In this document: positions 12,868-55,127 of the stretch, piece after piece
Position numbering within the stretch: the first letter of the stretch is position 1
Layout: each line of letters starts with the position of its first letter
Assembly (NCBI GenBank): GCA_003169895.1
Contig: PNAE01000007.1
Location: 1,426,880 to 1,490,879, forward strand
Source of the DNA: Gemmatimonadota bacterium
GTDB lineage: Bacteria > Gemmatimonadota > Gemmatimonadetes > Gemmatimonadales > GWC2-71-9
Direction of reading: 5' to 3'
DNA: 64,000 nucleotides
Notes under the pieces: generated by a model
Told to the model about the DNA's origin: nothing
The model's input: the letters and a program-made list of their open reading frames with translations, nothing else
The model's database searches: none
Program-made: the position numbers and the translations under genes

Positions 12868-15537
12868 TCATGGCCGTGTCGCCGCCGGCGCGGTCGAGTC
12901 GGCGTGCTGGAAGATCATCGGCCAGTGCTGGAGGTAGGCCACCGCGAGGCCGGTCGAAGACTGACGCAGAAGATATCGCTCGCCGTCGCCGCCGACGGCG
13001 AAACCGGTGCCGTTATCGTCAAAGGTGGAGCGCCGCCACGTTGGTACCGAAAACAGAGTGCGCGGCGTCCCGGGAGGCGCGCCCGCAGCAGCGATGTCCG
13101 CCACCTGCACGCGGCCGTCAGGCGTGAGGTATGTCAGTTGCCGACCACCATGCGTCCAGGCGGGCCAGCGACCGCCCTCAAGCGAAACCCGCAACGGTGG
13201 ACCGGAAGGCAGCGGCTGTACGTACACCTCATACCGGTCGGTTTCGTCGGACGTGTACGCGACGGAGTGGCCATCAGGGGAAAAGCGCCCATCCGACACT
13301 CGTCCCGGACGGATGATCGATTGCGTCTCGGCGCTACCATCCACCGGGATGATGCGGAGCGTACTGTCCTGTCGCACGAGCAGGAAACGACCGTCTGGCG
13401 ACCAGTCGAGTGGGAACCGGCATTCGCTGTTGCTGGAAAGCGTCGAGATTTCCTTGCCGACGACCCGCTCGACGCTCGTGCGGAGATCGCGATCCACGAT
13501 GCGACAACGATTGCCCCCGCGCATGGCGTAGACGAGGTGCGTGCCGTTGCCGTTGAAGGCCGGATGAGTGGTACCGAATGCGAAACCGGTCGTCGGAAAG
13601 GTGCTGTCCTGCACCAGGACCCGGGTGCCGCGGTTGGCATCGAGATCGTAGAGCCAGATGCCGGCGGTGTTGCCGGCGACAGCTACCATGGCCGGGCCGC
13701 CTCGCGCGGGTCGGACGCTCATAGTCCAGGCGCCATCTACCCGTACGGTGTCCCGGAGCAGCCCGCTGGCATCGTAGACGAGATACGGCCGGTCCTGCCC
13801 GCCGGGGAGGAATGCCAGCACGCCGTTCGACGACACCGCGAAGGTATGGATGCCCGCCTGGGCCCGGACGTCATTGGCGGCCCGGACTACCGGCCCTTCA
13901 AGTGCCAGTGAATTCAGGTTCAGTCGCTGTGCATCAAGGGCGCGCACGTCATTCTGGCTCGCCTTGAGCAGGTAGCCCGGGGCGACGACCGAGAATTCAA
14001 CCGTCCGGACCGGGAGCGTCGCGACGGTCTTCCCGTCAAGACTTGCCGCGATCATGTCGGTGAATTGGCCACGGGCAATCAGCATCCGTTTTCCGTCGGG
14101 AAGAAAGAGTCCCTTGAGCGACGGGCCGGAGCCGCGAGGAACCACGACCTTGCACGTTCCGCCGTCCGCTGGCACCGTCGAAATGCCGTCGCGATGCCCG
14201 AAGAGGATCAGCCCCAACTTGCTCCACGAACCTCCGGTTGCGTCGGCTACTGGGCAAAGCCTCCGCACCTGTCCGTTCGGCTCCGCCACCAGGAGAAACC
14301 CGCCGGCGAAAAATCCCAGCGATCGCCCATCGGGCGACCAGAATGGTGCGTTGGCGCCGTTCGAGCCATTCACGGGCTCGGCGTCCAGGCGATCAACGCC
14401 GCGCACCCAGAGGTTCCGCGACCCGTCCGCTGCGGCAAACACGAATGCGAGGCGACGACCATCCGGCGATAGCGCCAGCGACCGTTGCTCCCCGAAGCTG
14501 CCGCCAGCCGGGGCAAGGATCGACGTGGCCGTGAGTGCTCCGCTGCTCGCTTGACCCGTTCGCCACGGCCGCGCGGCCAGAATGCCGACGACCGCACCGC
14601 CGAGGGCGAGCGCCACGGCGGCAGCGATGACGAGTGGCCGGTTCCTCTTTCGCGTCCCATTGCTCGACGACCCTGTGCTCCGGCGTACGTGCATCTTGAC
14701 TGCGGGCGCGCCACCTTCGCGCAGTGCCGCGCCGAAGTCGGCGGCGGTTGCGAATCGATCTGCCGGCAACTTCTCGAGCGCGTGCAGCACCGCCGCCTCG
14801 ACGTGCTCGGGGACGGCCTTCCGTTGGGCCACGATCCCCCGGGGGTCCTCCGTGATCAGGCGCGCGACGATCGCCTGGACGCTCGGTCCCGTGAATGGTG
14901 GTTCGCCCACGAGCATTTCGTAGGTCACCGCACCGAGCGAGTAGATGTCGCTTCGTGCGTCGATGGCGCGCTCGCCCATGGCCTGTTCGGGGGACATGTA
15001 TTGTGGCGTGCCAAGCGAGAGTCCAGTCTGGGTCATCCGCTGTCCGCCGGCGGTCTGCACCGCGAGCGCGATGCCGAAATCGGCGACCAGTGCGTGGCCA
15101 TCCTGCAGCAGGATGTTCTCCGGCTTGATATCACGGTGAATCACGGCGCGCCCGTGCGCGTAGCTCAGTGCGTCCGCGACTTCCCGCGCAATGCGCATGG
15201 CGTCATCCACCGGTAGCTGGCGCTCGCGTTCGAGGCGAGTGCGCAGTGTTTCGCCGGTGACGAGCGGCATCACGTAGTACAGCAGTCCTTCGGCTTCGCC
15301 GCTGTCAAGCAGCGGCAGGATGTGCGGGTGCTGCAGCGCCGCCGTGGTCGTGATCTCCTGCACGAAGCGATCGGCACCGAGCACGGCAGCCAGTTCGGGC
15401 TTCAGGACCTTGATGGCGACCTTGCGCTTGTGCTTGAGGTCCTCGGCGAGATACACCGTCGCCATGCCGCCCTGGCCCAGTTCGCGGTCGATGCGGTAAC
15501 GGTCGGAAAGGGCCTCCCGAAGGCCGTCACGGCTCAT
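12868..15537 (-). CDS. Ser/Thr protein kinase with TM segment and C-terminal PD40/TolB-like beta-propeller repeats
   Basis: Hanks motifs GQGGMATVYLA, VAIKVL, HRDIKPENILL, DFGIA, YMSPEQ. A TM helix follows (LVIAAAVALALGGAVVGILAA), then repeated WSPDG-type blades (FWSPDGRSL, DWSPDGRFL, RFSPDGHSV). Confidence 0.9.
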   Translation of the reverse strand: MSRDGLREALSDRYRIDRELGQGGMATVYLAEDLKHKRKVAIKVLKPELAAVLGADRFVQEITTTAALQHPHILPLLDSGEAEGLLYYVMPLVTGETLRTRLERERQLPVDDAMRIAREVADALSYAHGRAVIHRDIKPENILLQDGHALVADFGIALAVQTAGGQRMTQTGLSLGTPQYMSPEQAMGERAIDARSDIYSLGAVTYEMLVGEPPFTGPSVQAIVARLITEDPRGIVAQRKAVPEHVEAAVLHALEKLPADRFATAADFGAALREGGAPAVKMHVRRSTGSSSNGTRKRNRPLVIAAAVALALGGAVVGILAARPWRTGQASSGALTATSILAPAGGSFGEQRSLALSPDGRRLAFVFAAADGSRNLWVRGVDRLDAEPVNGSNGANAPFWSPDGRSLGFFAGGFLLVAEPNGQVRRLCPVADATGGSWSKLGLILFGHRDGISTVPADGGTCKVVVPRGSGPSLKGLFLPDGKRMLIARGQFTDMIAASLDGKTVATLPVRTVEFSVVAPGYLLKASQNDVRALDAQRLNLNSLALEGPVVRAANDVRAQAGIHTFAVSSNGVLAFLPGGQDRPYLVYDASGLLRDTVRVDGAWTMSVRPARGGPAMVAVAGNTAGIWLYDLDANRGTRVLVQDSTFPTTGFAFGTTHPAFNGNGTHLVYAMRGGNRCRIVDRDLRTSVERVVGKEISTLSSNSECRFPLDWSPDGRFLLVRQDSTLRIIPVDGSAETQSIIRPGRVSDGRFSPDGHSVAYTSDETDRYEVYVQPLPSGPPLRVSLEGGRWPAWTHGGRQLTYLTPDGRVQVADIAAAGAPPGTPRTLFSVPTWRRSTFDDNGTGFAVGGDGERYLLRQSSTGLAVAYLQHWPMIFQHADSTAPAATRP

Positions 15538-15546
15538 GGGTATGCC

Positions 15547-17832
15547 TCATTGGATGAAATTCAACCGCTTCATCAGCGCAGCGAACCGCGGGTCAGATCG
15601 CAGCGGATCGAAGGTCCAGTCCACCTTCAGCCAGACCATTTGCTGCGAATTGGCCACATAGGCCTGCTCGAGATAGTCGAGCGCGCGAGCGTGATCGCCG
15701 AGGCCGAGATACACCAGTGCCAGGTTGTACGGCGCGACCTTTCCGCCAGGCGAAATCTTCTTCAACTCCCCAAGAGTCACCATCGCGCCGGCGCGATCAC
15801 CCGACTTCCCCTGGGCGTACGCCAGATTGGCGGTCACGAACGGCGGGGCACCCAAGGTCAGCGATTGCTTCAATTTCTCGATCGCCTCGCGGAAATTGCC
15901 CACGTGCAGCGCCATGATCCCTTCCTGCTCGACCGGGAAGTAGAAGGTTGGGTCGAGATCCGCTGCCTTCCGGTCCAGCTCCAGGGCTTTTGCCGTCCGG
16001 CCCGAGAATTCGAGTGACGCCACCTCATCGATCAGGATCGACGGCGAGAGCGGATCCAGCGCCATGGCGCGCTGGCCTTCGGCGATCGCCTCGTCGAAGC
16101 GCCCGATGAGCCCCAGCATCAGGCCGAACTGGTCGTGTGCGAAGGCATAATTGGGATTCAGGGCGATTGCCCGGCGGAGCTCCTGCTCGCTCCCGTCCCA
16201 ATCGTAGTCGAACCACGCCTTGAAGACGCCGAGCGATGTATGCGCCTCGGCCGACATGCTGTCGAGCGCTACCGCGCGTTCGGCGGTTTCCTTCGCTCTC
16301 GGCTTCGCATCGGCGACGGAAATGAATCCTTCGTTGAACGCCGCCCAAGTGTAGGCATCCGACAGCCCCGAGTACGCCGGGACGAACGTCGGGCTCAGCC
16401 TGACCGCAGTATCAAACTGCGCGATCGCCTTCTCAAGGTTTTCATCGCTGGGACGATTGAAGAAATATCGACCCTTGAGATAAGCGTCATGCGCCGCCGG
16501 ATCGACGGTCGGCGCGGCGGAAAGGCGGGACTGCTCGCCCGGCGTGAGCCGCACGTTGATCGCGCTCGCAATGGCCGACGCCAGCTCGGCCTGAAGCGCC
16601 AACACGTCGCTCGAACTGCGCTCGAAGGTCTGGGCCCAGAGGTGCCTGTCGGCGCGAGCGTCGATCAGTTGCGCGTTGATCCGTACCCGGTCGCCGACCC
16701 GGGTCACCGAACCCTCGACGACGGCATCGACGTTGAGGGTCCTGGCGATCGCCGGCGTCGGTGGACGATTGCTCCCCTTGAACTGCATTGCGGACCCACG
16801 CGAGGTGACCCGAAGCTGGCTGATCATCGCCAGGTCACTCGTCAGCTCATCCGTCATGCCCTCGGCGAAGTAGTCCTGGGTGGAATCGGCGGAATAGTTG
16901 TCGAGCGGGAGTACGGCGATCGAGTGGATCGCGGACGTCGGACCAGTGCCGCTCGAGCTCCCGCGTCGCGCGAACAGATACGCCCCGACAATGGCGACGA
17001 AGACGATCCCGACAGCCACCGCAAGCCCCTTCCATCTGCCTGGGCGCGCTTGCGGAGTCGGGGCCGGCGCGGCAGCGGCTCCGCTCGAGAGTGCCTCGGC
17101 AAACTCACGTGCGGTGGCGAACCGATCGATCGGTGCCTTGGCCAGAGCGCGCAAGACGGCCGCGTCGACAGCCGCCGGTACGGTGTCGCGGAGTACGCGC
17201 AACGACATGGCGCGCTCGGTCATCACCTTCGCGATGATCGCCTGGGCCGATGCGCCGGTGACAGGCGGCTCACCGGCGAGCATTTCGTACGTCACCGCCC
17301 CGAGGGCAAAGACGTCGCTGCGAGCGTCGAGGGCGCGCTCTCCGGCGGCTTGTTCGGGGCTCATGTAGCTCGGCGTGCCGAGCGAGAGCCCCGTTCCGGT
17401 GAGGCGGTCGCCGCCGGCCTCGCTCACGGCGAGTGCGATGCCGAAGTCCGTGAGGATCGCCTCGCCTTCGTGCAGCAGAATGTTCTCCGGCTTGATGTCC
17501 CGGTGGATCACGCCGTGGCGGTGGGCGTAGTCGAGCGCCGCAGCGATCTGGCGCGTGATAGTGAGCGCCTCGTCGATCCCGAGCTGCTTCTCCCGTGTGA
17601 GCCTGGCGCGAAGCGATTCTCCGCGCACGAAGGGCATGACATAGAAGAGCGTGCCGTCGACGGTCCCGGAGTCGATCAGCGTCAGGATGTGGGGATGGTC
17701 GAGCCTGGCGGTGATTTTGACTTCCGCGAGGAAGCGTTCTGCCCCGAGTGCCTGGGCGAGCTCGGGACGCAACACCTTGATCGCCACTTCGCGTTCGTGC
17801 TTGAGATCACGGGCGAGATAGACCGTGGCCAT
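15547..17832 (-). CDS. Ser/Thr protein kinase with TM segment, TolB-N-like domain and C-terminal TPR repeats (true start probably upstream, CTG at 17913)
   Basis: HRDIKPENILL, DFGIA, YMSPEQ; IAVLPLDNYSADSTQDYFAEGMTDEL; TPR repeats (AIALNPNYAFAHDQFG...). The first ATG is the Met inside the GAGGMATVYLA P-loop. The frame continues upstream as LSSDATQRLATALADRYTIERELGAGG with no ATG/GTG/TTG. Confidence 0.88.
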   Translation of the reverse strand: MATVYLARDLKHEREVAIKVLRPELAQALGAERFLAEVKITARLDHPHILTLIDSGTVDGTLFYVMPFVRGESLRARLTREKQLGIDEALTITRQIAAALDYAHRHGVIHRDIKPENILLHEGEAILTDFGIALAVSEAGGDRLTGTGLSLGTPSYMSPEQAAGERALDARSDVFALGAVTYEMLAGEPPVTGASAQAIIAKVMTERAMSLRVLRDTVPAAVDAAVLRALAKAPIDRFATAREFAEALSSGAAAAPAPTPQARPGRWKGLAVAVGIVFVAIVGAYLFARRGSSSGTGPTSAIHSIAVLPLDNYSADSTQDYFAEGMTDELTSDLAMISQLRVTSRGSAMQFKGSNRPPTPAIARTLNVDAVVEGSVTRVGDRVRINAQLIDARADRHLWAQTFERSSSDVLALQAELASAIASAINVRLTPGEQSRLSAAPTVDPAAHDAYLKGRYFFNRPSDENLEKAIAQFDTAVRLSPTFVPAYSGLSDAYTWAAFNEGFISVADAKPRAKETAERAVALDSMSAEAHTSLGVFKAWFDYDWDGSEQELRRAIALNPNYAFAHDQFGLMLGLIGRFDEAIAEGQRAMALDPLSPSILIDEVASLEFSGRTAKALELDRKAADLDPTFYFPVEQEGIMALHVGNFREAIEKLKQSLTLGAPPFVTANLAYAQGKSGDRAGAMVTLGELKKISPGGKVAPYNLALVYLGLGDHARALDYLEQAYVANSQQMVWLKVDWTFDPLRSDPRFAALMKRLNFIQ

Positions 17833-18065
17833 GCCGCCGGCACCGAGCTCGCGCTCGATGGTGTAGCGGTCGGCGAGCGCGGTGGCGAGCCGTTGCGTGG
17901 CGTCAGAACTCAGAGAGTGCCCCGCCGGTCAGGGAGAACAGAGTGCCAGGTGATGCCGGAATTGCTGGGGATGGGGACCCCATGAATATGCCCCCGAACC
18001 GGCGGGTGCGAAGTGAGAGCGGCGAGCGAGGTCGACCCGGCGGGGGGGCGCTCGAGGGTCCTTCG

Positions 18066-18109
18066 AGGTGTCCTCCGGGTGTCCGTTGGGTGTCCGTTGG
18101 GTATCTGCT
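18066..18109. repeat. tandem 11-nt repeat GGGTGTCCGTT (2 perfect + 2 degenerate units)
   Basis: aggtgtcctcc-gggtgtccgtt-gggtgtccgtt-gggtatctgct, located about 150-200 nt upstream of the kinase start. The same 11-mer pair recurs at 30430-30451 upstream of a kinase remnant, followed in both places by GTCGGAATCG. Confidence 0.6.
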
Positions 18110-18356
18110 ATCCCGTCGGAATCGGTGAAATATTGAGGCGGCCGCCCACTGGGCGAAATCCTCACCGACCGGCGGGTGCCAAACGTGGCGATAACTATTG
18201 CGATCTAGCGCGCCAGAACCTGAACCCAGGACCTGTTACGGGCAGAGCAGCGGCGCAGTGACGCCCCACGTCGGCTCGATCGCCAGTCGAGGTGTGTTAT
18301 AGCCGGCCAGGAGCGGAACCGCGGTGATGGCGCCGGTTGCGCGCGACCAGCGCGGC

Positions 18357-18956
18357 TTAGCGCACCACCACGGTATCCGGTCCGGCGACCTTCCGCACAT
18401 GACAGCCGTCGCTCCCGAACGTGTAGCTTGCGCTGAATCCCTTCCCGGCCGCGGTTCCAGTCACGCGGACGGCGTCGCCAGATTCGCGGACCTCGCCCAG
18501 GAAATTGTCGCTGAAGATGTCTACCGTGCCGGCGAGGAACACCGCGTCCTGCGGCACCGCGAACCCATGGCCGGTGCGTACGACGGTGTCGGCGACGGCG
18601 AGTCCCGTCACGGGCTGGCCGGCAGCGTCAACAGCAACGGCCGTGATGTAGGCGAAGATCGCGGTGCACGCGCCGCCGTTGCTGGAAGTGGTGCACGCGC
18701 TCGTTGCGACCGCGAGGAGGAGAAGGCGCCAATGGCGCTCCAGAGGAGCTAGTCGGGTCCTTCCTCCTCCAGCGTGATCGGCGCCCTCCTCGGCGCTCAA
18801 GCGCTGCCATTGCCGGATCAGTTGCGGGGCCACCGCCAGTTCCCGGGCCAGTTCGGCGACGGTGAGTTCCTGGCGGCCTAAGCGCGCGACCTGCTCCTGC
18901 CTGAACTGCGGCGTGACGACCCGACGACCATCCGCCTTGCGGCGATGCGTTTCCAT
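18357..18956 (-). pseudogene. chimeric ORF: IS3-family OrfA (HTH) N-terminal fragment fused in frame to a lipoprotein-like C-terminal domain
   Basis: The N-terminal ~55 aa (RRVVTPQFRQEQVARLGRQELTVAELARELAVAPQLIRQWQRL) look like IS3/IS911 OrfA. This is followed by a signal/lipobox-like RLLLLAVATSAC and a ~125-aa Gly/Val/Thr-rich domain. No OrfB and no IS ends are present. Confidence 0.4.
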
Positions 18957-19191
18957 CCGACGACCCTCCGGTGGGAAGTAAACCTACGCTTCCCAAAGTG
19001 CCTCGGCGAATTGGGGTACAGACCAAACCCGAGTTTCGACCAATGAGACTCGTGGCGTCATCACGGCCCCTTCACGGCGGCCCGCAATCCCGCGACATTG
19101 TACAACCGGCCACCGCGAATCACCAACTCCGACTTTCGCAAGTCGCTCACGTGCGCTGCGGGCCGTCCATTCACGACAATGAGATCGGCGA

Positions 19192-19365
19192 TCTTGCGGC
19201 AAATCTTTGAGGTCGACCCGCTCCGGTGCCCGTGCTGCCACGGGACCATGTGGATCATCGCGTGCATCACCCAGACGGCGGTGATCGATCAGATCCTCAC
19301 CCACCGTGGCACGCCGCGCAGAGCCGCGCTACATGCTCAGAGTCCCGATTGAAATTCCTATCGGG
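19192..19365 (+). mobile_element. IS91/Y2-transposase C-terminal tail remnant, copy a
   Basis: Encodes ...ILRQIFEVDPLRCPCCHGTMWIIACITQTAVIDQILTHRGTPRRAA*, the characteristic zinc-ribbon tail of IS91-family transposases. No catalytic domain lies upstream. It is a near-identical direct repeat of 21435-21594. Confidence 0.6.
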
Positions 19366-19458
19366 CACCGGTATCCGGCGATGTCGTGGCACTGGAGGGT
19401 GTAAACGTCTACTTGCTGACCGGCGTGATACCGTGACGTCCTGGGCTGTACACCGTTG

Positions 19459-19592
19459 TCATCCTGAGCGAAGCGCGCGTCGCGCGCGCAGTCGAAGGAC
19501 CTCGGATCCAGGCGCAGGGACCGACATTTCAGCGCGGAACCGCGGTCCTTCGACTGCGTCGGTGCTTCGCACCGACTTCGCTCAGGATGACA
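19459..19592. repeat. 134-nt imperfect palindromic (MITE/REP-like) element
   Basis: GTCATCCTGAGCGAAG (19459-19474) pairs perfectly with CTTCGCTCAGGATGAC (19577-19592). Inner arms CAGTCGAAGGACC (19490-19502) pair with GGTCCTTCGACTG (19545-19557). It lies 20 nt downstream of the amidohydrolase stop. Confidence 0.6.
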
Positions 19593-19612
19593 TGTTCGGT
19601 GGAGCTAGGCTG

Positions 19613-20809
19613 CTACCGGATGGTCGGGCGCCCCAAAGACAGGTACACCACCCCGCCTTTCATCACGAACTTCACCCGCCGCACCGCCTCGATCTCCTGA
19701 AGCGGGTCGCCGTCGAGCGCGATCAGGTCGGCCTGGTATCCCGGGGCGATCGTTCCGATCACACGGCCGAGTCCCAGAGCATCGGCGTTACGTGAAGTGG
19801 CGGTGACCAGTACCGCCATTGGCGATTGTCCCGCTTCCCGCACCCAGCAGACCAGGTCCTCGGCGTTGCGTCCGTGGGCGCCGGCAGTGGCGTCGGTCCC
19901 GTACAGCACCTTGAGGCCGGGCGTGGCGATGGCGGTGCGCAGCAGGCTCGGCAACTTCGGCAGCATCTGCGTCATCAGCGCGAATCCTTCGGAGTCCAAA
20001 CCGCCGATTCCCTCGAAGCGGGCCCGGTTCTCGAGATAGTTGCGGAGCACCAGCCCGCACTGCGGATCGAAGTACACGCCATGGGCAGCGAGAACATTGA
20101 GGCCCGCGGTGGTGGCGAGAAACCCGTGCTCGACCTCGGTGCAGCCGGCGGCCGCGGCTTGGGCAACGGAGGCATCGTCCTGGGCGTGGATCACCGAGCG
20201 GAGCTTGACCCGGCGGGCCTCGCCGCAGAGGGCCGAGAGCTGCTCGAGCGTGAACACGGGAACGCCGCCATCCCGGACGGCATTGGAGGCGAAAATCTTG
20301 ATGAAATCGGCGCGATCGGCTGCGTGGCGCTGCACCAGGCGCCGGAGTGCGTCGGGCGTCGGCGTAGCGTCGTGGATCTGGGACAGCGATGTCAGGATGC
20401 GGGGGCCGGGAAGGGCGCCGGCGTTGATCTTGTCGCGCAGTTCCCCTTCAATCTCGGCGCCCATGCTCGCGACGGTGGTGAACCCGGCCCGCAAGGTGGC
20501 GAGCAGAAGCGCCGCTCGCGCCGTATCGCGCTGTGGCGCGGTCTCACCATCGTCGGTGTTGGCGAGCCGCCCCTGACGGTTGAAGAATCCGTTGAGGTGG
20601 ACGTGCGCGTCGATCAGGCCGGGGAGGACGGTATAGCGGGAGAGGTCGTAGCTGACGGAGTCACCGCGCCAGGGGGCGACACCGGTGATCCGACCATTGA
20701 CCACGGTGATCACCGCGTCGCGCATCTGGCCGCCCCGACCGTCGAGCAGGAGGCCGGCGCGAAGGGTCACCGGCGCCGGGCGGCAGGAAGCACCGGCGAC
20801 GCCGATCAA
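19613..20809 (-). CDS. metal-dependent amidohydrolase (imidazolonepropionase/Xaa-Pro-dipeptidase-like superfamily), exported; copy 1
   Basis: HxH metal motif PGLIDAHVHL and a C-terminal GYQADLIALDGDPL. By eye it is about 85-90% identical to 53883-55127. The track start is TTG at 20809. Homology to copy 2 (LTVV..KRPA.RALL.FWA...AG.SC signal/lipobox) extends to an in-frame CTG at 20875, 1 nt after the stop of peptide P1. Confidence 0.85.
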   Translation of the reverse strand: MIGVAGASCRPAPVTLRAGLLLDGRGGQMRDAVITVVNGRITGVAPWRGDSVSYDLSRYTVLPGLIDAHVHLNGFFNRQGRLANTDDGETAPQRDTARAALLLATLRAGFTTVASMGAEIEGELRDKINAGALPGPRILTSLSQIHDATPTPDALRRLVQRHAADRADFIKIFASNAVRDGGVPVFTLEQLSALCGEARRVKLRSVIHAQDDASVAQAAAAGCTEVEHGFLATTAGLNVLAAHGVYFDPQCGLVLRNYLENRARFEGIGGLDSEGFALMTQMLPKLPSLLRTAIATPGLKVLYGTDATAGAHGRNAEDLVCWVREAGQSPMAVLVTATSRNADALGLGRVIGTIAPGYQADLIALDGDPLQEIEAVRRVKFVMKGGVVYLSLGRPTIR

Positions 20810-20876
20810 TGCCCAGAAGCAGAGAAGCGCCCGGCTGGCCGGGCGCTTCGTTAGGTCTGCACTGACGACGGTCAGC

Positions 20877-20987
20877 CTACTGGTAGGTGAGGGCGTCTTG
20901 GGCTCCCGAGAGGACCGACGCGCCCAAGGTCAATTGGCTCAGGGTCGCCTCTTCCCGGATTACCGGGGCAACGAACTTCTTCTTCAT
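20877..20987 (-). CDS. 36-aa peptide P1 with lasso-type leader: [36 protein letters not shown]
   Basis: GGAGG lies 4 nt before the ATG (20987). The first 21 residues are conserved in three paralogs despite several synonymous codon changes. The stop TAG (20879-20877) is separated by 1 nt from the amidohydrolase reading frame. Confidence 0.6.
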   Translation of the reverse strand: MKKKFVAPVIREEATLSQLTLGASVLSGAQDALTYQ

Positions 20988-21065
20988 GCTTCCTCCGCGG
21001 AGAATCGGGCCATCGCTACGGCCGGGCCATCCCGGGGCGCGCAGCGAGGACCGCCGGCTTAGACA

Positions 21066-21167
21066 CTAATCAAAGTCACGTGCTCCGGAGATGCCCGGGG
21101 AAGCCAGCGTCAACTGACTCAAGGTCGCTTCTTCCCGGATCACCGGGGCGATGAACTGCTTCCTCAT
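21066..21167 (-). CDS. 33-aa peptide P2 with lasso-type leader: MRKQFIAPVIREEATLSQLTL-ASPGISGARDFD
   Basis: GGAGG lies 4 nt before the ATG (21167). It sits 78 nt upstream of P1 on the same strand. The leader is identical to P1 and P3 from position 10 to 21. Confidence 0.6.
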   Translation of the reverse strand: MRKQFIAPVIREEATLSQLTLASPGISGARDFD

Positions 21168-21197
21168 AGCGCCTCCTCAGGGAATGCCACTTTCGGT

Positions 21198-21226
21198 ATC
21201 ATGGATGACGCTGGAGCCGAGCGCAA
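21198..21226 (-). promoter_or_regulatory. putative sigma70-type promoter of the P2-P1-amidohydrolase cassette (TTGCGC-N17-CATGAT)
   Basis: The minus strand reads CCACTCTTGCGC-tcggctccagcgtcatc-CATGAT, about 30 nt upstream of the P2 ATG. The whole ~90-nt upstream region is conserved with the region upstream of P3 (53693-53782). Confidence 0.4.
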
Positions 21227-21434
21227 GAGTGGCGCGAGGGCAACAGGGTGGTGAGGTTGCAACAGTCCAGCGAGCCAGTCGATCAGGCTGATTGGCCACC
21301 CGGGCGTCGGTCAGTTCCCTCAAGCGGCGGCGGGCGCCGGCGCCAGGCCGAGTCCGTTCTGATCGACGCGCCGGTGCCGATCGTCACCACGCCGCGGCTC
21401 GCGCCCACCGAGGCCAGCCGTCGGTGGGCGGCGT

Positions 21435-21594
21435 TCTTGCGGCAGATCTTTGAGGTCGACCCGCTCCGGTGCCCGTGCTGCCACGGGACCATGCGGATCA
21501 TCGCGTGCATCACACCCGAACCGCATGCGGGCTCGTGGCACGCCGCGCAGAGCCGCGCTACATTCTCAGAGTCCCGATTGAAATTCCTATCGGG
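21435..21594 (+). mobile_element. IS91/Y2-transposase C-terminal tail remnant, copy b (internally deleted)
   Basis: Encodes ...WAAFLRQIFEVDPLRCPCCHGTMRIIACIT... The DNA is near-identical to 19192-19270 and 19306-19365, with the segment between them replaced. The shared 3' end is CTCAGAGTCCCGATTGAAATTCCTATCGGG. Confidence 0.6.
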
Positions 21595-21789
21595 TCGCCG
21601 ATGGGATCCGCATTACGCGGACACTTGGTCGAGGCGGTGCCACGGAACGGCGAGTGACGCTCGGCACGGTCGGGGCTCGACACTGGAGCTCGCTGCGGTC
21701 GGCACAAGCGTCGGAGTCGATTGTCCTCCTCGCCAAGGAGTCCCGATCATGATCATGCGCTTCAACCGTCCCGTCGCCGCTATCTTCGC

Positions 21790-22116
21790 GTGCTCGTGCA
21801 TCGCCGCATCGCCGCATCGCTGCTCGCGTGCAGGGACAACACCTCTGACGGCCCGGCGAAGTGCCGGAGTACGCTCAGCCTGTTTACGTCACCCGCGCCT
21901 GGAACGGTGACGCTGAAAGGGCAATTCTACGCGGATGAATCGATCCTGATCTACGACTTCGCAACCAACTCGATCGTTGCGCAAGGAACGCCCGCCACCG
22001 ATCGCACCAGCTTCACGCTCACGGGACTACCGAGCGGCCAGCGCGATTACCTCATCAAGGCGTCATGCGCGAACGGTCAGGAAACAATCGACGAGGGTGT
22101 TTTCACCGTGTCGTGA
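21790..22116 (+). CDS. small putative lipoprotein (108 aa)
   Basis: An in-frame GTG at 21790 gives MLVHRRIAASLLAC (lipobox LLAC). A beta-rich domain follows (GTVTLKGQFYADESILIYDF...SFTLTGLPSGQRDYLIKASC). The track ORF starts earlier, at 21721. Confidence 0.45.
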   Translation: MLVHRRIAASLLACRDNTSDGPAKCRSTLSLFTSPAPGTVTLKGQFYADESILIYDFATNSIVAQGTPATDRTSFTLTGLPSGQRDYLIKASCANGQETIDEGVFTVS

Positions 22117-22319
22117 GGTGTTGGCGTACGATCCGCGGGCGGCAACCCCCTCACCTATCTCGTCGACGTGCTGCGAAGCCTGATGGTGGTGGGCGCGGTC
22201 AGCGCCACCGGCGTCGGACGGGACTTTGCCGTCCTCGGCGCGTTGGGGTCGAACTGCTGATCGCGCTCGCGGCGCGATTCTACGCCGGCCTGGCGCAGTA
22301 GGTCACGGAGACCATCGCG

Positions 22320-22772
22320 ATGCTTGTGCGCCTGATCGTCAACGGGGAGGTGAAGGAACTTGAGGTTCCGACGGGGCGGAGCCTGCTCGCCGTGCTGCGA
22401 GACGACCTCGACCTCACCGGCGCCAAGTACGGCTGTAGCCATGGCGGCTGCGGCGCCTGCATGGTGCTCGTCGATGGCGAGGCGACGCCGTCGTGCGTGA
22501 CTCCGGCGGAGACCATCGTGGGCAGGCAGATCGTCACGATCGAGGGCCTCGCCGCCGGGGCGACACTTCATCCGGTTCAACAGGCATTCCTGGATGAAGA
22601 TGCCATGCAGTGCGGTTACTGCACGACCGGCATGGTGATTAACGCCGTCGCGTTGTTGCAGCGGATCGCCACGCCGTCCGAGCGGCAGATCCGCGAGGCA
22701 CTTGCCGCCAACCTTTGTCGATGCGGCGTCTACCAGCGGGCCATTCGCGCCGTGCAGCGGGCGTCACGATGA
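22320..22772 (+). CDS. (2Fe-2S)-binding small subunit of a molybdenum hydroxylase (IorA/CoxS-like)
   Basis: Two [2Fe-2S] cysteine clusters: GCSHGGCGACMV and QCGYCTTGMV...CRCGVY. Confidence 0.9.
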   Translation: MLVRLIVNGEVKELEVPTGRSLLAVLRDDLDLTGAKYGCSHGGCGACMVLVDGEATPSCVTPAETIVGRQIVTIEGLAAGATLHPVQQAFLDEDAMQCGYCTTGMVINAVALLQRIATPSERQIREALAANLCRCGVYQRAIRAVQRASR

Positions 22773-24769
22773 GCGCGCGGGCCGAGCGCGGTGGCTGGGG
22801 TGAACCGCCGCCCGAACGGGTGGAACAACGCATTGTCATTGAGCGCGACAACACCGTCACCGCCCGATCCGGCAAGGTCGAGTACGGCCAGGGCATCCGC
22901 GCCGGGTTCGCCATGATTGTCGCCGAAGAACTCGGGGTGCGGTTCGACCGGGTTCGCGTCGAACTCGGCGAAACCGATCGTGTGCCGTGGGATATGGGGA
23001 CCTTCGGCAGCATGTCGACCGCGGTTGACGGCTCGTTGCTCCGCGCCGCCGCCGCCGTTGCTCGCGCGATGCTGCTCGAGCGCGCCGCCGCGCGATGGCA
23101 GCTACCGATGGACGGGCTCGACACGCGAGACGGTGCCGTCGTCGCATCCGATGGTCGGACGCTCTCGTTCGCAGCGTTGACGGCGGGCGAGCCGCTCGCT
23201 GGACCGGTGGCCTCCGCGGTGCTGCGACCGATGACCGAGGCGGTCGATCAGCCGCGCCGCACCGGCGCATTCGACATCGTCACCGGCCGGGCGCGCTATC
23301 CTGGCGACATTCGCCTTCCCGGGATGGTGCACGGACACGCGCTGGCGCCGCCGCGGTCCGGGTGCGGGTTGCTCGCACTCGTGGATCGCGGTGCAGCGGC
23401 CGTCTCCGGTGTGATTGCGGTGGTGCGGGATGGCGACTTCGTCGGGGTCGTCGCCGAGCGGGACGAGCAGGCGCACGAAGCGCTCAGGCTCCTCCATGTC
23501 GATTGGGGACCACCACCACCACCGGCCGCGCCGACGCAAATCGAGATGCGCAACGATGGCGGCGTGGACGAGGCGTTCGCTGGCGGGCACGGGATCATCG
23601 CCGCCGAATACTCGGTGCCGCATATCGCCCATGCGTCGATCGGCCCGAGTGCAGCCGTCGCGTCGGTTACGCGCGATCGCACCGACGTGTATGCCGCCAC
23701 GCAGCGCCCATTCGGTCTGCGTGACGAAGTGGCGGGGCTGCTTGCCACCCCTCCCCAGCGGGTGAGCATCCACCCGACCGCGATGGGCGGGATGTACGGG
23801 CGGGGGAACATGAACGATGCCGCGCTCGAGGCGGTGCGCCTCTCACGCGCCGTCCAGCGTCCCGTGATGGTGCAATGGACCAGGACCGAGGAATTCCAGC
23901 GGAGCCCCGCGCGACCGGTCCTCGAGGCTCACCTTGAGGCCGTGCTGACCGACGGCACGATCACCGCGTGGCGCTCGAGCATCCGGACGAACCCGCACGC
24001 CTACGTTGGCGCGGTGGTCCCGCCGCAGGTGCTTGAAATCACGTCGGGACGCAACGCGGTGCCGGCCTACCGGCTTGGGCGGGCGGCTGTCATGCTCGAG
24101 GTGGTCCCGGCGAGCATTCGCACCGGCGCGTTTCGTTCGCTGGCGGCCGCGCCGAACATCTTCGCCATAGAATCGTTCATCGACGAACTTGCCGGCGCCG
24201 CCGGCCGGGATCCGATCGCATTCCGGCTCGAACACCTCGATGATCCGCGCCTGCGTCGCGTCCTCGAAACGGTGCGTGAACGGAGCGGGTGGGACCGCCA
24301 CGGGCAGGTGGCCGGACGCGGGCTTGGTGTCGCCTGCGCCATATACAACGATACCGCGGTGGCGCAGGTGGCAGAGGTCGTCTGCACGGATGGCGCCACG
24401 GTCCGGCTGGAGCGAATCTGGTGCGCGGTCGACGCCGGTCACCTGGTGCATCCCGACGGCGCGCGGAATCAGATCGAGGGAGGGATCCAGCAGGCGGCGA
24501 GCTGGACGCTGCTCGAGGCGCTGGCTGTTGACGATGGCGCGATCGCGACGACGAATTGGCGAGACTATCCCATCGCGACCTTCCGCGACGCACCGGAACG
24601 GATCGACGTAGTGTTCACGACGACACCCGGTCAGCGATCGTCCGGGACGGGTGAGCCCGGCTCGGTGCCGACGGCCGCGGCGATCGCCAACGCGGTGTTC
24701 GCCGCCTGCGGCGTGCGCGTCCGCCGGCTCCCCTTTGCGCGCGGGGTCAACGACGCACGCTCTCCCTGA
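22769..24769 (+). CDS. molybdopterin-binding large subunit (IorB/aldehyde-oxidase-like), no Tat signal
   Basis: The ATG at 22769 overlaps the small-subunit stop (ATGA). It shows EYGQGIRAGFAMIVAEELGV and a C-terminal GTGEPGSVPTAAAIANAVFAACG, typical of this family. Confidence 0.85.
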   Translation: MSARAERGGWGEPPPERVEQRIVIERDNTVTARSGKVEYGQGIRAGFAMIVAEELGVRFDRVRVELGETDRVPWDMGTFGSMSTAVDGSLLRAAAAVARAMLLERAAARWQLPMDGLDTRDGAVVASDGRTLSFAALTAGEPLAGPVASAVLRPMTEAVDQPRRTGAFDIVTGRARYPGDIRLPGMVHGHALAPPRSGCGLLALVDRGAAAVSGVIAVVRDGDFVGVVAERDEQAHEALRLLHVDWGPPPPPAAPTQIEMRNDGGVDEAFAGGHGIIAAEYSVPHIAHASIGPSAAVASVTRDRTDVYAATQRPFGLRDEVAGLLATPPQRVSIHPTAMGGMYGRGNMNDAALEAVRLSRAVQRPVMVQWTRTEEFQRSPARPVLEAHLEAVLTDGTITAWRSSIRTNPHAYVGAVVPPQVLEITSGRNAVPAYRLGRAAVMLEVVPASIRTGAFRSLAAAPNIFAIESFIDELAGAAGRDPIAFRLEHLDDPRLRRVLETVRERSGWDRHGQVAGRGLGVACAIYNDTAVAQVAEVVCTDGATVRLERIWCAVDAGHLVHPDGARNQIEGGIQQAASWTLLEALAVDDGAIATTNWRDYPIATFRDAPERIDVVFTTTPGQRSSGTGEPGSVPTAAAIANAVFAACGVRVRRLPFARGVNDARSP

Positions 24770-29694: not shown

Positions 29695-30141
29695 ATGGAG
29701 ACGAAAGCCATGCGCAGAATGAACGTTCCATTCTCCGGGGCTCTGTCCTTGTCGATGATCGTTCTCATCTCGACGGTCTCCACAGGGGCAGCACAGGCGC
29801 CGGCCGCGCCGGCACATCAACATTACGTGTACTGCATCTCAGGCTCGAGTATGCCAGTCGTCTATTTCAGCGAAGTTTTTGCGGCGGCGACGACAAGCGA
29901 TAAGGTTGGACCGTCTCCCGCGCCGAACAGGTTCTACGAGATCGCCGACCCCTTCAAGGCGTTTCTCGAGAAGAAATATGGCGCCGAGAGCCATTCCACC
30001 ACTCCCCCCAGCTGCCGTGTCACTAACCCGGACCCCGCGGGCCTCGAGGCAGCGCAAAAGGCCAAGCAGGGATTTGAAGACATGTACAAGCAGCAATACA
30101 AGAAACAGATCGTCGAGACCGGTTGGAAATACACGCCATAG
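29695..30141 (+). CDS. secreted hypothetical protein (148 aa)
   Basis: Signal-peptide-like N-terminus ([20 protein letters not shown]) and a Lys/Gln-rich C-terminus. No known motif. Confidence 0.5.
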
Positions 30142-30161
30142 TCCGTCCGCCGCCGCACACG

Positions 30162-30412
30162 ATTGCCGCCGAAGGTGGTGACGGAGTTGCGGCCGGTGGC
30201 TTCGTTGATCGCTTTTGCTACGCCGAAATCGGTCACCAGGGCGTGGCGGCCAGAGAGCATCACGTTGTCGGGCTTGATGTCGCGATGCACCACGCCGTGT
30301 TCGTGTGCCTCGACGAGCGCATCGACCACCTCGGTGATCAGGCGGACCGCCTCCAGCGCAGCTCCATGGGAACGGCGCGCCCTCGGCCGAGCGCAACTTC
30401 GGCGGAACCGTG
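30162..30412 (-). pseudogene. internal fragment of a Ser/Thr kinase (catalytic loop/DFG), frameshifted and truncated at both ends
   Basis: The minus strand encodes [60 protein letters not shown], almost identical to the 50354-53014 kinase. The preceding [11 protein letters not shown] is in another frame. The P-loop region and everything after the DFG segment are missing. Confidence 0.65.
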
Positions 30413-30429
30413 GGCTTGAGATCCCACCT

Positions 30430-30451
30430 AGGTGTCCGTTGGGTGTCCGTT
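30430..30451. repeat. tandem 11-nt repeat (A/G)GGTGTCCGTT x2
   Basis: aggtgtccgtt-gggtgtccgtt followed by agcGGGTCGGAATCG. The module is homologous to 18066-18125. Confidence 0.6.
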
Positions 30452-30474
30452 AGCGGGTCGGAATCGAAAAAACG

Positions 30475-30513
30475 CTTCCCGGCAGAATGGCGGGAAATCC
30501 TTGTAGAATCAGG
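30475..30513 (+). repeat. 39-nt repeat R1, copy b
   Basis: CTTCCCGGCAGAATGGCGGGAAATCCTTGTAGAATCAGG, 38/39 identical to 27489-27527. Confidence 0.7.
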
Positions 30514-30547
30514 CTTTTCGTCGGACTTGCGAAAAATATCGAGTGGC

Positions 30548-30589
30548 CTGATTAGCGTGAGGTCGGAGGTTCAACTCCTCCCAGGCCCA
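30548..30589 (+). pseudogene. tRNA-Ile(GAU) 3'-half remnant, second copy (att-like direct repeat)
   Basis: CTGATTAGCGTGAGGTCGGAGGTTCAACTCCTCCCAGGCCCA is 41/42 identical to 12693-12734 in the same orientation. It is preceded by GAGTGGC, and no 5' half is present. Confidence 0.7.
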
Positions 30590-53573: not shown

Positions 53574-53722
53574 GCGGTGTCCTCGTCGTGCGGAATGTGC
53601 GATGTGTATTGGGAAGCCCAAAGGTACCATCGCCGGGGGATTGCGCCATCGAAAAGGCGCCAGGCGCGTGACCTCGTATGCTCGCTTATTCTCTGCCACA
53701 CCCTGTGGCCTTCCCGCCACTC

Positions 53723-53751
53723 TTGCGCCCGGCTCCAACGACCTGCATCAT
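53723..53751 (+). promoter_or_regulatory. putative sigma70-type promoter of the P3-amidohydrolase cassette (TTGCGC-N17-CATCAT)
   Basis: CCACTCTTGCGC-ccggctccaacgacctg-CATCAT. It is homologous position-for-position to the element upstream of P2 (21198-21226, minus strand). Confidence 0.4.
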
Positions 53752-53782: not shown

Positions 53783-53881
53783 ATGAAGAAAGAGTTCGTT
53801 GCCCCGACGATCCGGGAAGAGGCGACCCTGAGTCAGTTGACCCTGAGGCAGGGCCTCTCGGGAAGCAACGACGAACTTTAA
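53783..53881 (+). CDS. 32-aa peptide P3 with lasso-type leader: MKKEFVAPTIREEATLSQLTL-RQGLSGSNDEL
   Basis: AGGAGG lies 4 nt before the ATG. The leader is conserved with P1 and P2. The TAA (53879-53881) is followed after 1 nt by the TTG start of the amidohydrolase (53883). Confidence 0.6.
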   Translation: MKKEFVAPTIREEATLSQLTLRQGLSGSNDEL

Positions 53882-53882: not shown

Positions 53883-55127
53883 TTGACCGTCGTCGCTGCA
53901 TGCGCAAGGAAGCGCCCGGCCACCCGGGCGCTCCTTGTTTTCTGGGCATCGGTCAGCATCGCCGGTACCTCCTGCCAGTCGAGCCCGCTCCCGGTGACCC
54001 TCCGCGCCGGCCTCCTCCTCGACGGGCGGGGCGGCCAGATGCGGGACGCGGTGATCACCGTGGTGAACGGCCGGATCGCGACCGTGGCTCCCTGGCGGGA
54101 CGACTCCGTCACCTACGACCTCTCCCGCTATACCGTCCTCCCCGGCCTGATCGACGCGCACGTCCACCTCAACGGATTCCTCAACCATCTGGGGAGGCTG
54201 GCCAACACCGACGACGGTGAGACGTCGGCACAGCGCGCGGCGGCGCGCGCGGCCGTCGCCCTCGCCACCCTGCGTGCCGGGTTCACCACGGTGGCGAGCA
54301 TGGGCGCCGAGGCCGAAAAGGAACTCCGCGATGAGATCAACGCCGGCGCCCTTCCCGGCCCCCGCATCCTGACCTCCCTGGCCCAGATCCACGGCAACGC
54401 CCTCGCGCCCGATGCACTCCGGCGCCTGGTGCAGCGCCACGCGTCCGACCGCGCCGACTTCATCAAGATCTTCGCATCCAACGCCCTCAGAGATGGCGGC
54501 GTGCCCGTGTTCACCCTCGAGCAGCTCTCGGCCCTCTGCGGCGAGGCCCGCCGACTCAAGCTCCGCTCGGTGGTCCACGCCCAAGACGATGCCTCGCTCC
54601 GCCAGGCTGCGGCCGCCGGTTGCACCGAGGTCGAGCACGGCGCGCTTGCCACTGCGGCGGGCCTCGAGGTTCTCGCCAGCCGCGGCGTGTACTTCGATCC
54701 CCAATGCGGGCTCGTGCTTCGCAACTACCTCGAGAACCGCGCGCGCTTCGAGGGGATCGCCGATTTCGACTCCACCGGATTCGCGCTCATGACGCGGTTG
54801 CTCCCGTTGTTGCCGAACCTCCTGCGCACCGCCCTCGCCACGCCCGGTCTCAAGCTCCTGTACGGGACCGACGCAACCGCCGGCGCCCACGGACGGAACG
54901 CCGAGGACCTGGTCTGCCGGGTCCGGGAGGCGGGACAATCGCCGATGGATGCGCTGGTCACCGCCACTTCCCGGAACGCCGCTGCCTTGGGACTGGGGCG
55001 CGAGATCGGCACGATCGCCCCGGGATACCAGGCCGACCTGATCGCGCTCGACGGCGATCCGCTCCAGAAGATCGAGGCGGTGTTGCGTGTGAAGTTCGTG
55101 ATGAAGGGCGGGGTGGTGTACCACTAG
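53883..55127 (+). CDS. metal-dependent amidohydrolase, exported; copy 2
   Basis: The TTG start gives MTVVAACARKRPATRALLVFWASVSIAGTSC (signal/lipobox-like). PGLIDAHVHL metal motif. Paralog of 19613-20809. Confidence 0.85.
   Translation: MTVVAACARKRPATRALLVFWASVSIAGTSCQSSPLPVTLRAGLLLDGRGGQMRDAVITVVNGRIATVAPWRDDSVTYDLSRYTVLPGLIDAHVHLNGFLNHLGRLANTDDGETSAQRAAARAAVALATLRAGFTTVASMGAEAEKELRDEINAGALPGPRILTSLAQIHGNALAPDALRRLVQRHASDRADFIKIFASNALRDGGVPVFTLEQLSALCGEARRLKLRSVVHAQDDASLRQAAAAGCTEVEHGALATAAGLEVLASRGVYFDPQCGLVLRNYLENRARFEGIADFDSTGFALMTRLLPLLPNLLRTALATPGLKLLYGTDATAGAHGRNAEDLVCRVREAGQSPMDALVTATSRNAAALGLGREIGTIAPGYQADLIALDGDPLQKIEAVLRVKFVMKGGVVYH

Follow-up and report, generated by a model that had tools for sequence, protein, structure and literature searches.

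Short peptides with predicted lasso-type leaders and an adjoining amidohydrolase gene in Gemmatimonadota: candidate precursors of a RiPP-like pathway without a cyclase

Three short genes, here called P1, P2, and P3, lie in a stretch of 64,000 nucleotides from a Gemmatimonadota bacterium (contig PNAE01000007.1; this whole stretch is referred to as the window). We consider it reasonably probable that they encode precursors of a pathway resembling those that yield peptides made on the ribosome and modified after translation (RiPPs), derived from the lasso peptide machinery but operating without the lasso cyclase. An earlier, sequence-only reading of this DNA had reported the three small open reading frames (ORFs), and we reproduced their positions and translations (full-length P2, MRKQFIAPVIREEATLSQLTLASPGISGARDFD; full-length P3, MKKEFVAPTIREEATLSQLTLRQGLSGSNDEL; Table 1). 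GGAGG could be read off exactly 4 nt 5' of the ATG at all three, residues 10 to 21 proved invariant in the P1-P3 alignment despite differing codons, and the cores of 11 to 15 aa again had the motif [LI]SG[AS]xD in common. That reading also named the leader type correctly, but it missed the amidohydrolase partner, the promoter/terminator unit, the size of the family, and the rules that govern Cys and Ser in the cores.

A hidden Markov model (HMM) of the family finds exactly P1, P2, and P3 in the window (E ~1e-17) and nothing else; three copies in this stretch are far beyond chance. A protein identical to P2 is present in public assemblies (P0121), and one identical to P1 (P0075) occurs on 24 public contigs (27 index blocks) with unchanged gene order, so that the organism of the window has evidently been sampled repeatedly.

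The sequence-only reading had made its call dependent on homologous small ORFs in related genomes, and profile searches found these in number. A peptide profile run against 1.84 billion representatives gave 51 hits, and a search of 5.8 billion proteins with a profile built from 59 sequences gave 133; pooled, these amount to at least 159 distinct peptides with intact ORFs. Other queries had given a far narrower picture. The concatenated peptides found two metagenomic relatives only, both with an amidohydrolase gene downstream, since matches to short peptides fall short of significance in so large a database (5.8e9). Of 185,579 species genomes, a degenerate DNA pattern back-translated from the leader picked out two, both Gemmatimonadota metagenome-assembled genomes with the enzyme gene again present, and an early search found no family peptide beside amidohydrolases at ≤60% identity, a part of that narrow picture which was later overturned. 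Confinement of the family to one narrow clade was therefore rejected: the DNA pattern had been too strict, and the apparent narrowness was an artifact of query sensitivity. The G+C content of all contexts is 66 to 71%, and those records that carry names are Gemmatimonadota or Gemmatimonadales. A search of the literature found no description of this peptide family, and a sequence-string search was likewise without a match.

The leader consensus of the family, MKKxFVAPx[LI]RxEAxLxxLTL, spans 21 aa. In 59 aligned members, F5, P8, L16, and T20 are invariant and M1, K3, E13, and L21 nearly so. The cores that follow are hypervariable (median length, 14 aa in the 159 members), but they obey simple rules. 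Gly occupies core position 1 in 55% of the 159, Asp is found in the core of 126, and 158 have a Ser within core positions 3 to 9 (Ser27 in P1 and in P2, Ser26 in P3). Among the 157 cores of 30 aa or fewer, 56 have no Cys and 101 have two, but none has a single one, whereas shuffling predicts about 56 one-Cys cores. The most frequent core pattern is C-S-x(1-3)-C-D, of which the [LI]SG[AS]xD cores of P1 to P3 are Cys-free variants.

Divergence was assessed by Nei-Gojobori counts at six orthologous or paralogous loci. The proportions of synonymous and nonsynonymous differences (pS and pN) are 0.36 and 0.10 in the leader and 0.38 and 0.13 in the adjoining enzyme gene; P1 and P2 alone differ by 8 synonymous and 3 nonsynonymous changes. 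Leader synonymous sites thus drift as those of the enzyme gene do while the amino acids are held, which argues for selection on the protein and not on the RNA, as had been proposed. Equal conservation at synonymous sites, which would have pointed to an RNA element, was not found. Judged by these substitution patterns, the leader is under purifying selection at the protein level and belongs to a translated gene. In this joining of a conserved leader to a hypervariable core, under selection of this kind, the family resembles RiPP precursors whose leader depends on a RiPP recognition element.

A conserved element at the RNA or DNA level (a small RNA, for example, a repeat of the repetitive extragenic palindromic type, or a mobile unit), in which the ORFs would be incidental, could account for the nucleotide-level conservation of a hairpin and an upstream palindrome at these loci and for the multiple copies of the unit. 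This explanation is effectively refuted by the divergence of the leader synonymous sites, and it also fails to account for the retention of the start codon, the Shine-Dalgarno (SD) sequence, the frame, and the F, P, L, and T residues in 159 sequences, or for core lengths that differ by whole codons. An Rfam scan at the peptide sites gave no match.

Leader type and the four-gene cassette

The published template of lasso leaders has YxxPxL at positions -17 to -12 and Thr at -2, with the ring acceptor at core positions 7 to 9 (PMC10368454). The match claimed earlier for the window peptides stands, with F5, P8, I10, and T20 at -17, -14, -12, and -2 and Phe instead of Tyr (PMC10368454), and F5, P8, and T20 of this template are among the residues invariant throughout the alignment. 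Judged by these positions, the family leader is a genuine lasso-type leader. A profile search of the PDB for co-crystallized lasso leaders gave no match. A double-glycine leader, cut after SG by a peptidase-containing ATP-binding transporter (PCAT), was rejected, as LTL and SG are 4 to 6 residues apart, without a fixed spacing, and SG is missing from many members.

Some relatives of the window peptides lie directly 5' of a four-gene cassette, K-B1-B2-N, in the loci designated L103/L104 and L105. B1 is a PqqD-type RiPP recognition element (RRE) (PF05402 at 57.6 bits), for which the best NCBIfam matches are the lasso_PqqD models; B2 is a peptidase of the lasso B2 type (NF033537 at 60 bits; cut-off, 33); and N is an NTP_transf_5 protein (PF14907). 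K has 280 to 305 aa and no Pfam annotation, but it carries a GNSxxGKST P-loop, gives weak matches to HprK-related kinases, and has invariant H124/H126, K148, and D165-D166 in an alignment of 47 homologs. Its AlphaFold2 (AF2) model (pLDDT 93.8) matches the fold of phosphoenolpyruvate (PEP) carboxykinase and HPr kinase/phosphatase. The K family has at least 627 homologs; Gemmatimonadales and Candidatus Rokubacteria records are among those listed, some with PF27840, and the cassette may be much more widespread than the peptide family as detected.

Three precursors lie beside the cassette in L105. This locus and L099 come from one assembly, GCA_964439025.1, in which the cassette and its three precursors are on contig 19 and a peptide-amidohydrolase unit is on contig 1. 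The cassette and a peptide-amidohydrolase unit far from it thus coexist in one genome, and their leaders are identical at 17 of 21 positions.

A lasso cyclase (PF00733) was found neither within 10 kb on either side of the L103 cassette nor in the 10 kb upstream or the ~8.7 kb downstream of the L105 cassette, where the contig ends. An asparagine synthetase-like cyclase was likewise not found in any context examined, up to 20 kb. A canonical lasso biosynthetic gene cluster (BGC) that uses family members as its ordinary precursors, which would have deprived them of their novelty, was therefore not seen in the two cassette contexts, within ~9 to 10 kb. In the 64 kb of the window, the reported lack of cyclase, RRE, and B2 genes was confirmed by Pfam scans of ~50 selected ORFs and by six-frame HMM and phmmer searches with the cassette proteins, and a scan of the unannotated neighbor genes for hidden RiPP enzymes found none.

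The cores themselves are poorly suited to threading. With lasso geometry defined as G, A, S, or C at core position 1, D or E at positions 7 to 9, and a tail of at least 6 residues, 10 of the 159 cores fit, and none of P1 to P3 does. P1 begins with G1 and has its first acidic residue at D10, P2 with A1 and D10, and P3 with R1 and D9; the tails after the Asp have 5, 2, and 2 residues, respectively. D or E stands at core positions 7 to 9 in 61 of 159, and 21 of 159 have no acidic residue at all. In the three cassette-adjacent precursors of L105, the ring acceptor is badly placed or missing. Comparison with the NCBIfam lasso precursor models, a check proposed with the original call, gave a divided answer: P1 to P3 had no match at E ≤ 10, while among the 59 members three match lasso_cyano (best E 0.011) and one matches lasso_leader_L3 (E 0.13), all far below the cut-offs. 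Both halves of the earlier proposal hold, namely, a lasso-type leader and cores unable to form a lasso, which amounts to a RiPP leader that is orphaned or put to a new use.

These data also bear on the explanation that P1 to P3 are ordinary lasso precursors, closed, possibly into exceptionally large rings, by a canonical cyclase whose gene lies in another part of the genome, the amidohydrolase being a lasso-degrading or tailoring accessory. A leader that fits the lasso template at five positions, the frequent Gly1, the acidic residue at positions 7 to 9 in over a third of the cores, the subthreshold model matches, and the known lasso BGCs in Gemmatimonadota would all agree with it. We nevertheless regard it as quite improbable, given the position of the first acidic residue in P1 and P2, the Arg start and two-residue tail of P3, the small number of cores with the required geometry, the lack of a suitable acceptor in the very precursors that adjoin the L105 cassette, the failure of any member to reach an NCBIfam cut-off, and the lack of a cyclase near either cassette or in the other contexts.

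The amidohydrolase and the peptide unit

Peptide contexts were examined at 17 distinct places, and at 12 of these a peptide or a tandem peptide pair runs into an amidohydrolase gene (both window operons, L001, L002, L003, L004, L085, L087, two sites in L098, L099, and L101). Apart from this gene, every neighbor varies between contexts. In L085 (4084-9814), the peptide-peptide-amidohydrolase unit lies inside a larger apparent cluster, with genes for a dienelactone hydrolase-like lipoprotein, an acyl carrier protein, and a GNAT-like protein upstream and for a split thiamine pyrophosphate (TPP) enzyme, a PF04199 cyclase, and a chorismate mutase/prephenate dehydrogenase downstream. In L004, a fragment of a nonribosomal peptide synthetase (adenylation and peptidyl carrier protein domains; 30-710) lies directly 5' of the peptide, and a second amidohydrolase gene (28% identity; 2899-4368) is convergent on the linked one.

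The two window amidohydrolases are paralogs of ~400 aa that are 84% identical and match PF01979 at 118 to 122 bits. The metal-site motifs (HxH, Lys, His, His, and Asp) are all intact in the 10 full-length linked enzymes, as are the four that the truncated L087 enzyme covers. The scores against NF051886, an equivalog model for the Caulobacter Xaa-Pro dipeptidase, are 185 and 200 bits and stay below its cut-off of 500. The nearest solved relatives (E ~1e-42 to 1e-16) are of the carboxypeptidase type: ochratoxin amidohydrolase (8ihq), the L-Arg carboxypeptidase Cc2672 (3mtw), 3be7, 2qs8, and ochratoxinase (4c5y). Among themselves, the peptide-linked enzymes share 58 to 89% identity, and with unlinked relatives their identity does not exceed 58%. 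Their N terminus is lipoprotein-like (...RKRPATRALLVFWASVSIAGTSC), with a Cys after the hydrophobic region in 12 of 12, and more distant relatives have ordinary Sec signal peptides; from these features, export of the amidohydrolase is a sound inference.

At 11 of the 12 loci, the enzyme start codon lies between -29 and +28 nt from the peptide stop, and the enzyme gene has no SD sequence of its own, an arrangement that indicates translational coupling of the two genes. The exception is the P1 locus, where the candidate starts are CTG at +4 or TTG at +70. A programmed frameshift or fusion of peptide and enzyme, suggested by the lack of a canonical start before the hairpin at this locus, was rejected, since the 11 other loci have ATG, GTG, or TTG nearby.

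Upstream of the peptides, most family loci keep a conserved element (Table 1), orphan copies included, and the arms of its inverted repeat show compensatory changes in L090. Within the window, the exact 12-mer GCCACTCTTGCG is confined to the two operon starts, and at other loci it is seen only 5' of peptides. On the strength of this conservation, the element is taken to be a putative promoter plus operator; a sigma-70 consensus scan flagged neither window copy, leaving the proposed hexamers unsupported. In L098, at least three minus-strand copies near a PadR gene carry another conserved upstream motif, GGTACGAAAGATGCAGTAAAT-like, in place of GTGGC-N6-GCCAC, which suggests two possible regulatory classes. 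Next to the P3 promoter region lies a minus-strand ORF for a PIN-domain protein (52995-53738), which in its longest frame overlaps the conserved element there.

Downstream of P1 and of P3 lies a hairpin that resembles an intrinsic terminator. In the window, it occurs only at the two peptide units (0 expected by chance). The stem is invariant, synonymous positions included, in the first six loci aligned, with one substitution each in L087 and L101. The P1-unit hairpin folds with -25.9 kcal/mol (z = -3.5); a terminator scan called the P3 hairpin terminator-like and did not call that of P1. The hairpin arms double as codons for the KRPxxRAL n-region of the amidohydrolase signal peptide (window, L001 to L004, L085, L087, L098, L099, and L101), so that a transcription signal and a secretion signal appear to be superimposed. 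A terminator inside the n-region of the next gene's signal peptide is an unusual architecture, and it would set a high peptide-to-enzyme ratio.

Table 1. Features of the P2-P1 and P3 operons in the window
Feature	Position	Strand	Details
P1, candidate precursor peptide gene	20877..20987	(-)	Predicted leader MKKKFVAPVIREEATLSQLTL; GGAGG 4 nt upstream; found by family HMM
P2, candidate precursor peptide gene	21066..21167	(-)	Predicted leader MRKQFIAPVIREEATLSQLTL, core ASPGISGARDFD; GGAGG 4 nt upstream
P3, candidate precursor peptide gene	53783..53881	(+)	Predicted leader MKKEFVAPTIREEATLSQLTL, core RQGLSGSNDEL; GGAGG 4 nt upstream
Amidohydrolase 1 (PF01979)	19613..20875	(-)	Signal peptide end ...VAGASC; open frame from CTG 20875, 1 nt past P1 stop; first canonical start TTG 20809
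Amidohydrolase 2 (PF01979)	53883..55127	(+)	TTG start 1 nt past P3 stop; signal peptide MTVVAACARKRPATRALLVFWASVSIAGTSC
Upstream element, P2-P1 operon	21198..21244	(-)	GTTGC-N6-GCCAC (21244-21229), TTGCGC (21226-21221), 17-nt spacer, CATGAT (21203-21198)
Upstream element, P3 operon	53705..53751	(+)	GTGGC-N6-GCCAC (53705-53720), TTGCGC (53723-53728), 17-nt spacer, CATCAT (53746-53751)
Putative terminator/attenuator hairpin, P1 unit	20812..20849	(-)	9-bp GC stem GCGCCCGG-NNNN-CCGGGCGC (20827-20846) and pyrimidine-rich tract; encodes KRPASRALL
Putative terminator hairpin, P3 unit	53911..53942	(+)	AGCGCCCGG-CCAC-CCGGGCGCT, then CCTTGTTTTC; within signal-peptide codons KRPATRALLVF of amidohydrolase 2

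Not every peptide is followed by the enzyme. L098 holds about ten family peptides within 20 kb (8111-10126 on the plus strand and 14358-19282 on the minus strand) with two amidohydrolases, and orphan copies without the enzyme are found in L090, in L092, and five times in L098. These orphans retain the leader, usually the common upstream element, and a hairpin with clean T-runs after it, so that the unit of inheritance seems to be promoter, peptide, and terminator. The enzyme gene would then have been grafted onto the terminator of the peptide unit.

The hairpin lies 30 to 36 nt past the peptide stop codon, inside the 5' coding region of the enzyme, and together with the coupled start this could also be read as cis regulation. 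In such a case, the peptides would be upstream ORFs (uORFs), functionless in themselves, that steer terminator read-through and coupled translation of the enzyme. Several observations make this very improbable. Orphans with the same leader, promoter, and terminator are followed by no gene or by a convergent one, and tandem copies, as in P2-P1 and the L098 arrays, are unexpected for attenuators. The strict Cys-pair rule and the invariant Ser indicate a functional product under strong amino acid constraint, and relatives adjoin RiPP enzymes. Finally, it is the N-terminal 21 aa that are conserved and the stop-proximal part that is hypervariable, the reverse of what is seen in known arrest peptides such as SecM and TnaC.

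What the enzyme might do is hinted at by the cores to which it is linked. An internal Asp after a hydrophobic-Ser motif, with at least two residues beyond it, is found in 15 of 15 enzyme-linked but in only 2 of 12 unlinked peptides (Fisher p 8e-6, a value that is only indicative because the peptides are related). Considering this correlation and the carboxypeptidase-type relatives, together with PurAH as a precedent (in the bottromycin pathway, this dinuclear-zinc amidohydrolase takes off the follower peptide), the most economical guess is that the amidohydrolase trims the C-terminal tail at or after the conserved Asp.

The main alternative for the amidohydrolase is a role in immunity or turnover. 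In that scenario, the peptides are secreted and bacteriocin-like or serve in signaling, with little or no modification, the leader is there mainly for export or processing, and the enzyme inactivates the peptide in the periplasm, for self-protection or turnover, and has no part in maturation. Comparable self-protection proteins are the lipoprotein LanI and the peptidase NSR, which clips the C terminus of nisin. A peptide gene followed by a coupled lipoprotein gene is the classic toxin-immunity layout; hypervariable cores and arrays such as that of L098 fit a diversifying antagonism; the Cys-pair rule implies that the peptide is found outside the cytoplasm; and the enzyme is hydrolytic and of the carboxypeptidase type. 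The orphans speak both ways: peptides without the enzyme agree with this scenario, but if the enzyme conferred immunity, each toxin copy should have one beside it. Moreover, since relatives lie beside B1, B2, kinase, and NTP_transf_5 genes, some members at least should be modified, the near-invariant Ser suggests a modification site, and the Asp-plus-tail feature that tracks the enzyme suits substrate tailoring at least equally well. We therefore consider this alternative unlikely, though worth keeping in view.

Proposed pathway and known systems

For the RiPP-like pathway that we favor, we propose the following model. Each unit comprises a conserved promoter/operator-like element, a strong SD sequence, the 21-aa leader, a core of ~14 aa, and an intrinsic terminator. 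A PqqD-type RRE protein (B1) encoded elsewhere would bind the leader, and a transglutaminase-like B2 peptidase, also acting in trans, would cut after Leu21; for the window, both steps are inferred from the relatives that lie beside such genes and from GCA_964439025.1, which has the cassette as well as an amidohydrolase unit. The HPr kinase-fold protein K may phosphorylate the near-invariant core Ser, by analogy with PadeK, BsfK, PsmK, and PsmN, and the NTP_transf_5 protein may decorate this Ser further. No macrolactam or lasso would be formed. Where relatives contain Cys, the two obligate residues are probably joined in a disulfide, which would imply export of the peptide; the pair rule fits an oxidizing compartment, where the lipoprotein enzyme would meet the peptide. 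The amidohydrolase, made by terminator read-through and translational coupling and hence in low amounts relative to the peptide, would act on the exported peptide, most likely by trimming the tail after the conserved Asp.

Several points weigh against this model. HMM and phmmer searches with the cassette proteins found none of the components in the six frames of the window, and its contig is absent among the 120 K homologs listed of the 627. The assignment of K as a kinase is weak by sequence (25 bits against a cut-off of 200 for TIGR04352), and the TM-scores of its fold matches are modest. Only two independent cassette contexts were seen, so that a cyclase could lie further away. The Asp correlation is drawn from related sequences without phylogenetic correction, and the closest characterized amidohydrolases cut single C-terminal residues (from dipeptides, N-acyl amino acids, and ochratoxin) and not peptide tails. 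Finally, no exporter is conserved near the peptides in the contexts examined, so that the signal peptide and the pairing of Cys residues are all that speaks for an encounter of a leader-bearing cytoplasmic peptide with a periplasmic lipoprotein.

The closest parallels to the cassette are lasso systems with a kinase. PadeK, ThcoK, SyanK, PsmK, and BsfK phosphorylate a conserved precursor Ser before leader removal, with the assistance of B1; these lasso kinases have an H-K-D-D motif in common, the phospho-acceptor in the characterized systems is the C-terminal Ser or Ser3, and PsmN adds a hexose to the phospho-Ser. The paeninodin (pade), pseudomycoidin (psm), and Bradymonas bsf clusters resemble the family and its cassette in the aromatic-xx-P-x-[LI] leader with a conserved residue at -2, in the split PqqD B1 and transglutaminase-like B2, apparently in the HPr kinase-like enzyme with H-K-D-D, and in the NTP_transf_5 or "N" protein. 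In contrast to these clusters, the L103 and L105 cassettes have neither a cyclase (C) nor a dedicated ATP-binding cassette exporter (D) beside them, and K is only remotely related in sequence to their kinases (25 bits to TIGR04352). The cores differ as well, with a median of 14 aa and tails of mostly 2 to 6 aa after the Asp, which mostly could not thread, and the precursors are dispersed as autonomous promoter-peptide-terminator units, many of them fused to an amidohydrolase gene.

For the hydrolase, PurAH/BotAH is similar in being an amidohydrolase-superfamily metalloenzyme dedicated to a ribosomal peptide. It removes a C-terminal follower, and here the enzyme-linked peptides are those with an Asp and a C-terminal tail. 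However, PurAH is cytoplasmic, thiazoline specific, and part of a YcaO pathway, whereas the window-type enzyme has a lipoprotein signal and relatives of the Cc2672/ochratoxinase type, so that its likeness to PurAH is at the superfamily level. The L-Arg/Lys carboxypeptidase Cc2672, the Sgx9260 "prolidases," and the ochratoxin amidohydrolases (3mtw, 3be7, 3feq, 8ihq, and 4c5y) belong to the same superfamily and subgroup, with the same metal site, and this group comprises exported enzymes that cut the amide bond to a C-terminal residue. The linked enzymes differ from that group in their Cys-containing, lipoprotein-type signal that overlaps a putative terminator and in the coupled peptide gene, neither of which is known for the characterized members.

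The genomic dispersal of the precursors recalls the prochlorosins, in which many hypervariable precursors with one conserved leader are scattered over the genome and served in trans by one enzyme (ProcA/ProcM). The family is like them in its single leader, its extreme core diversity, its multiple copies per genome (about ten in L098 and three in the window), and the distance of many copies from the maturation genes. It differs in its chemistry and enzymes, with a lanthionine synthetase there, where B1, B2, and a kinase would act here, and in that many of the dispersed copies here have their own hydrolase.

We offer a broader reading only tentatively, as a possibility short of likely: that the family represents a new RiPP class in Gemmatimonadota and neighboring soil phyla. 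Such a class would be defined by B1/B2 processing without a cyclase, by Ser phosphorylation and perhaps glycosylation, and by genome-dispersed precursors with cores of 8 to 20 residues. The periplasmic dinuclear-metal amidohydrolase lipoprotein would be its class-specific tailoring enzyme at the Asp site, through either tail removal or an Asp-directed cyclization of the dihydroorotase kind, and every precursor-enzyme pair would be expressed across a terminator that is at once signal-peptide code. A lasso-type leader or a B1/B2 protein is taken as the mark of a lasso peptide, and it is the cyclase for which mining tools search genomes. The ~160 precursors, together with the kinase family of at least 627 members, suggest that the half of the lasso machinery which recognizes and cleaves the leader may have been reused without the cyclase, and cyclase-based mining tools would miss the short linear or disulfide-looped products. 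The hydrolase would be a second, independent enzyme of the amidohydrolase fold dedicated to a ribosomal peptide, for which the only precedent that we found is PurAH/BotAH. Gemmatimonadota are abundant soil bacteria with almost no characterized natural products, and the peptide system described here comes down to a concrete two to six genes.

Wider surroundings in the window

The two peptide-amidohydrolase neighborhoods of the window run parallel (12868-24769 and 48047-61071), each with a PD40-kinase gene and a TPR-kinase gene on one side and a [2Fe-2S] and MoCoBD oxidoreductase pair on the other, which suggests an old segmental duplication. On the minus strand, a gene with a transposase-type helix-turn-helix (HTH) domain (18357-18956) follows amidohydrolase 1.

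Genes for Ser/Thr protein kinases are dense, with about nine in the 64 kb (12868-17832, 29934-31831, 35828-43328, and 48047-53014). The majority encode a fusion with TPR, TolB_N, or PD40 beta-propeller domains, and each peptide locus has two such kinase genes at its flanks. The orphan peptide of L090 also adjoins a kinase gene; given the kinase density, such adjacency may be due to chance. A functional link between the peptides and these kinases was rejected as uninformative, with nine in the window and none adjacent in most other contexts.

A restriction or defense island occupies 46-11524, with a third-codon-position G+C of 0.63 to 0.69 against ~0.8 elsewhere in the window. It holds genes for a C-5 cytosine methylase (1459-2808), a Bpu10I-like endonuclease (2708-3658), RmuC (3785-5257), an SMC/AAA_13-like ATPase (5296-7656), and a GmrSD-HNH endonuclease (9089-10438). 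Toward the other end of the window, an S-adenosylmethionine (SAM) riboswitch (RF00162; 58067-58189, minus strand; 44.8 bits, just over the gathering score) lies between an unannotated ORF and the [2Fe-2S]/molybdopterin oxidoreductase operon.

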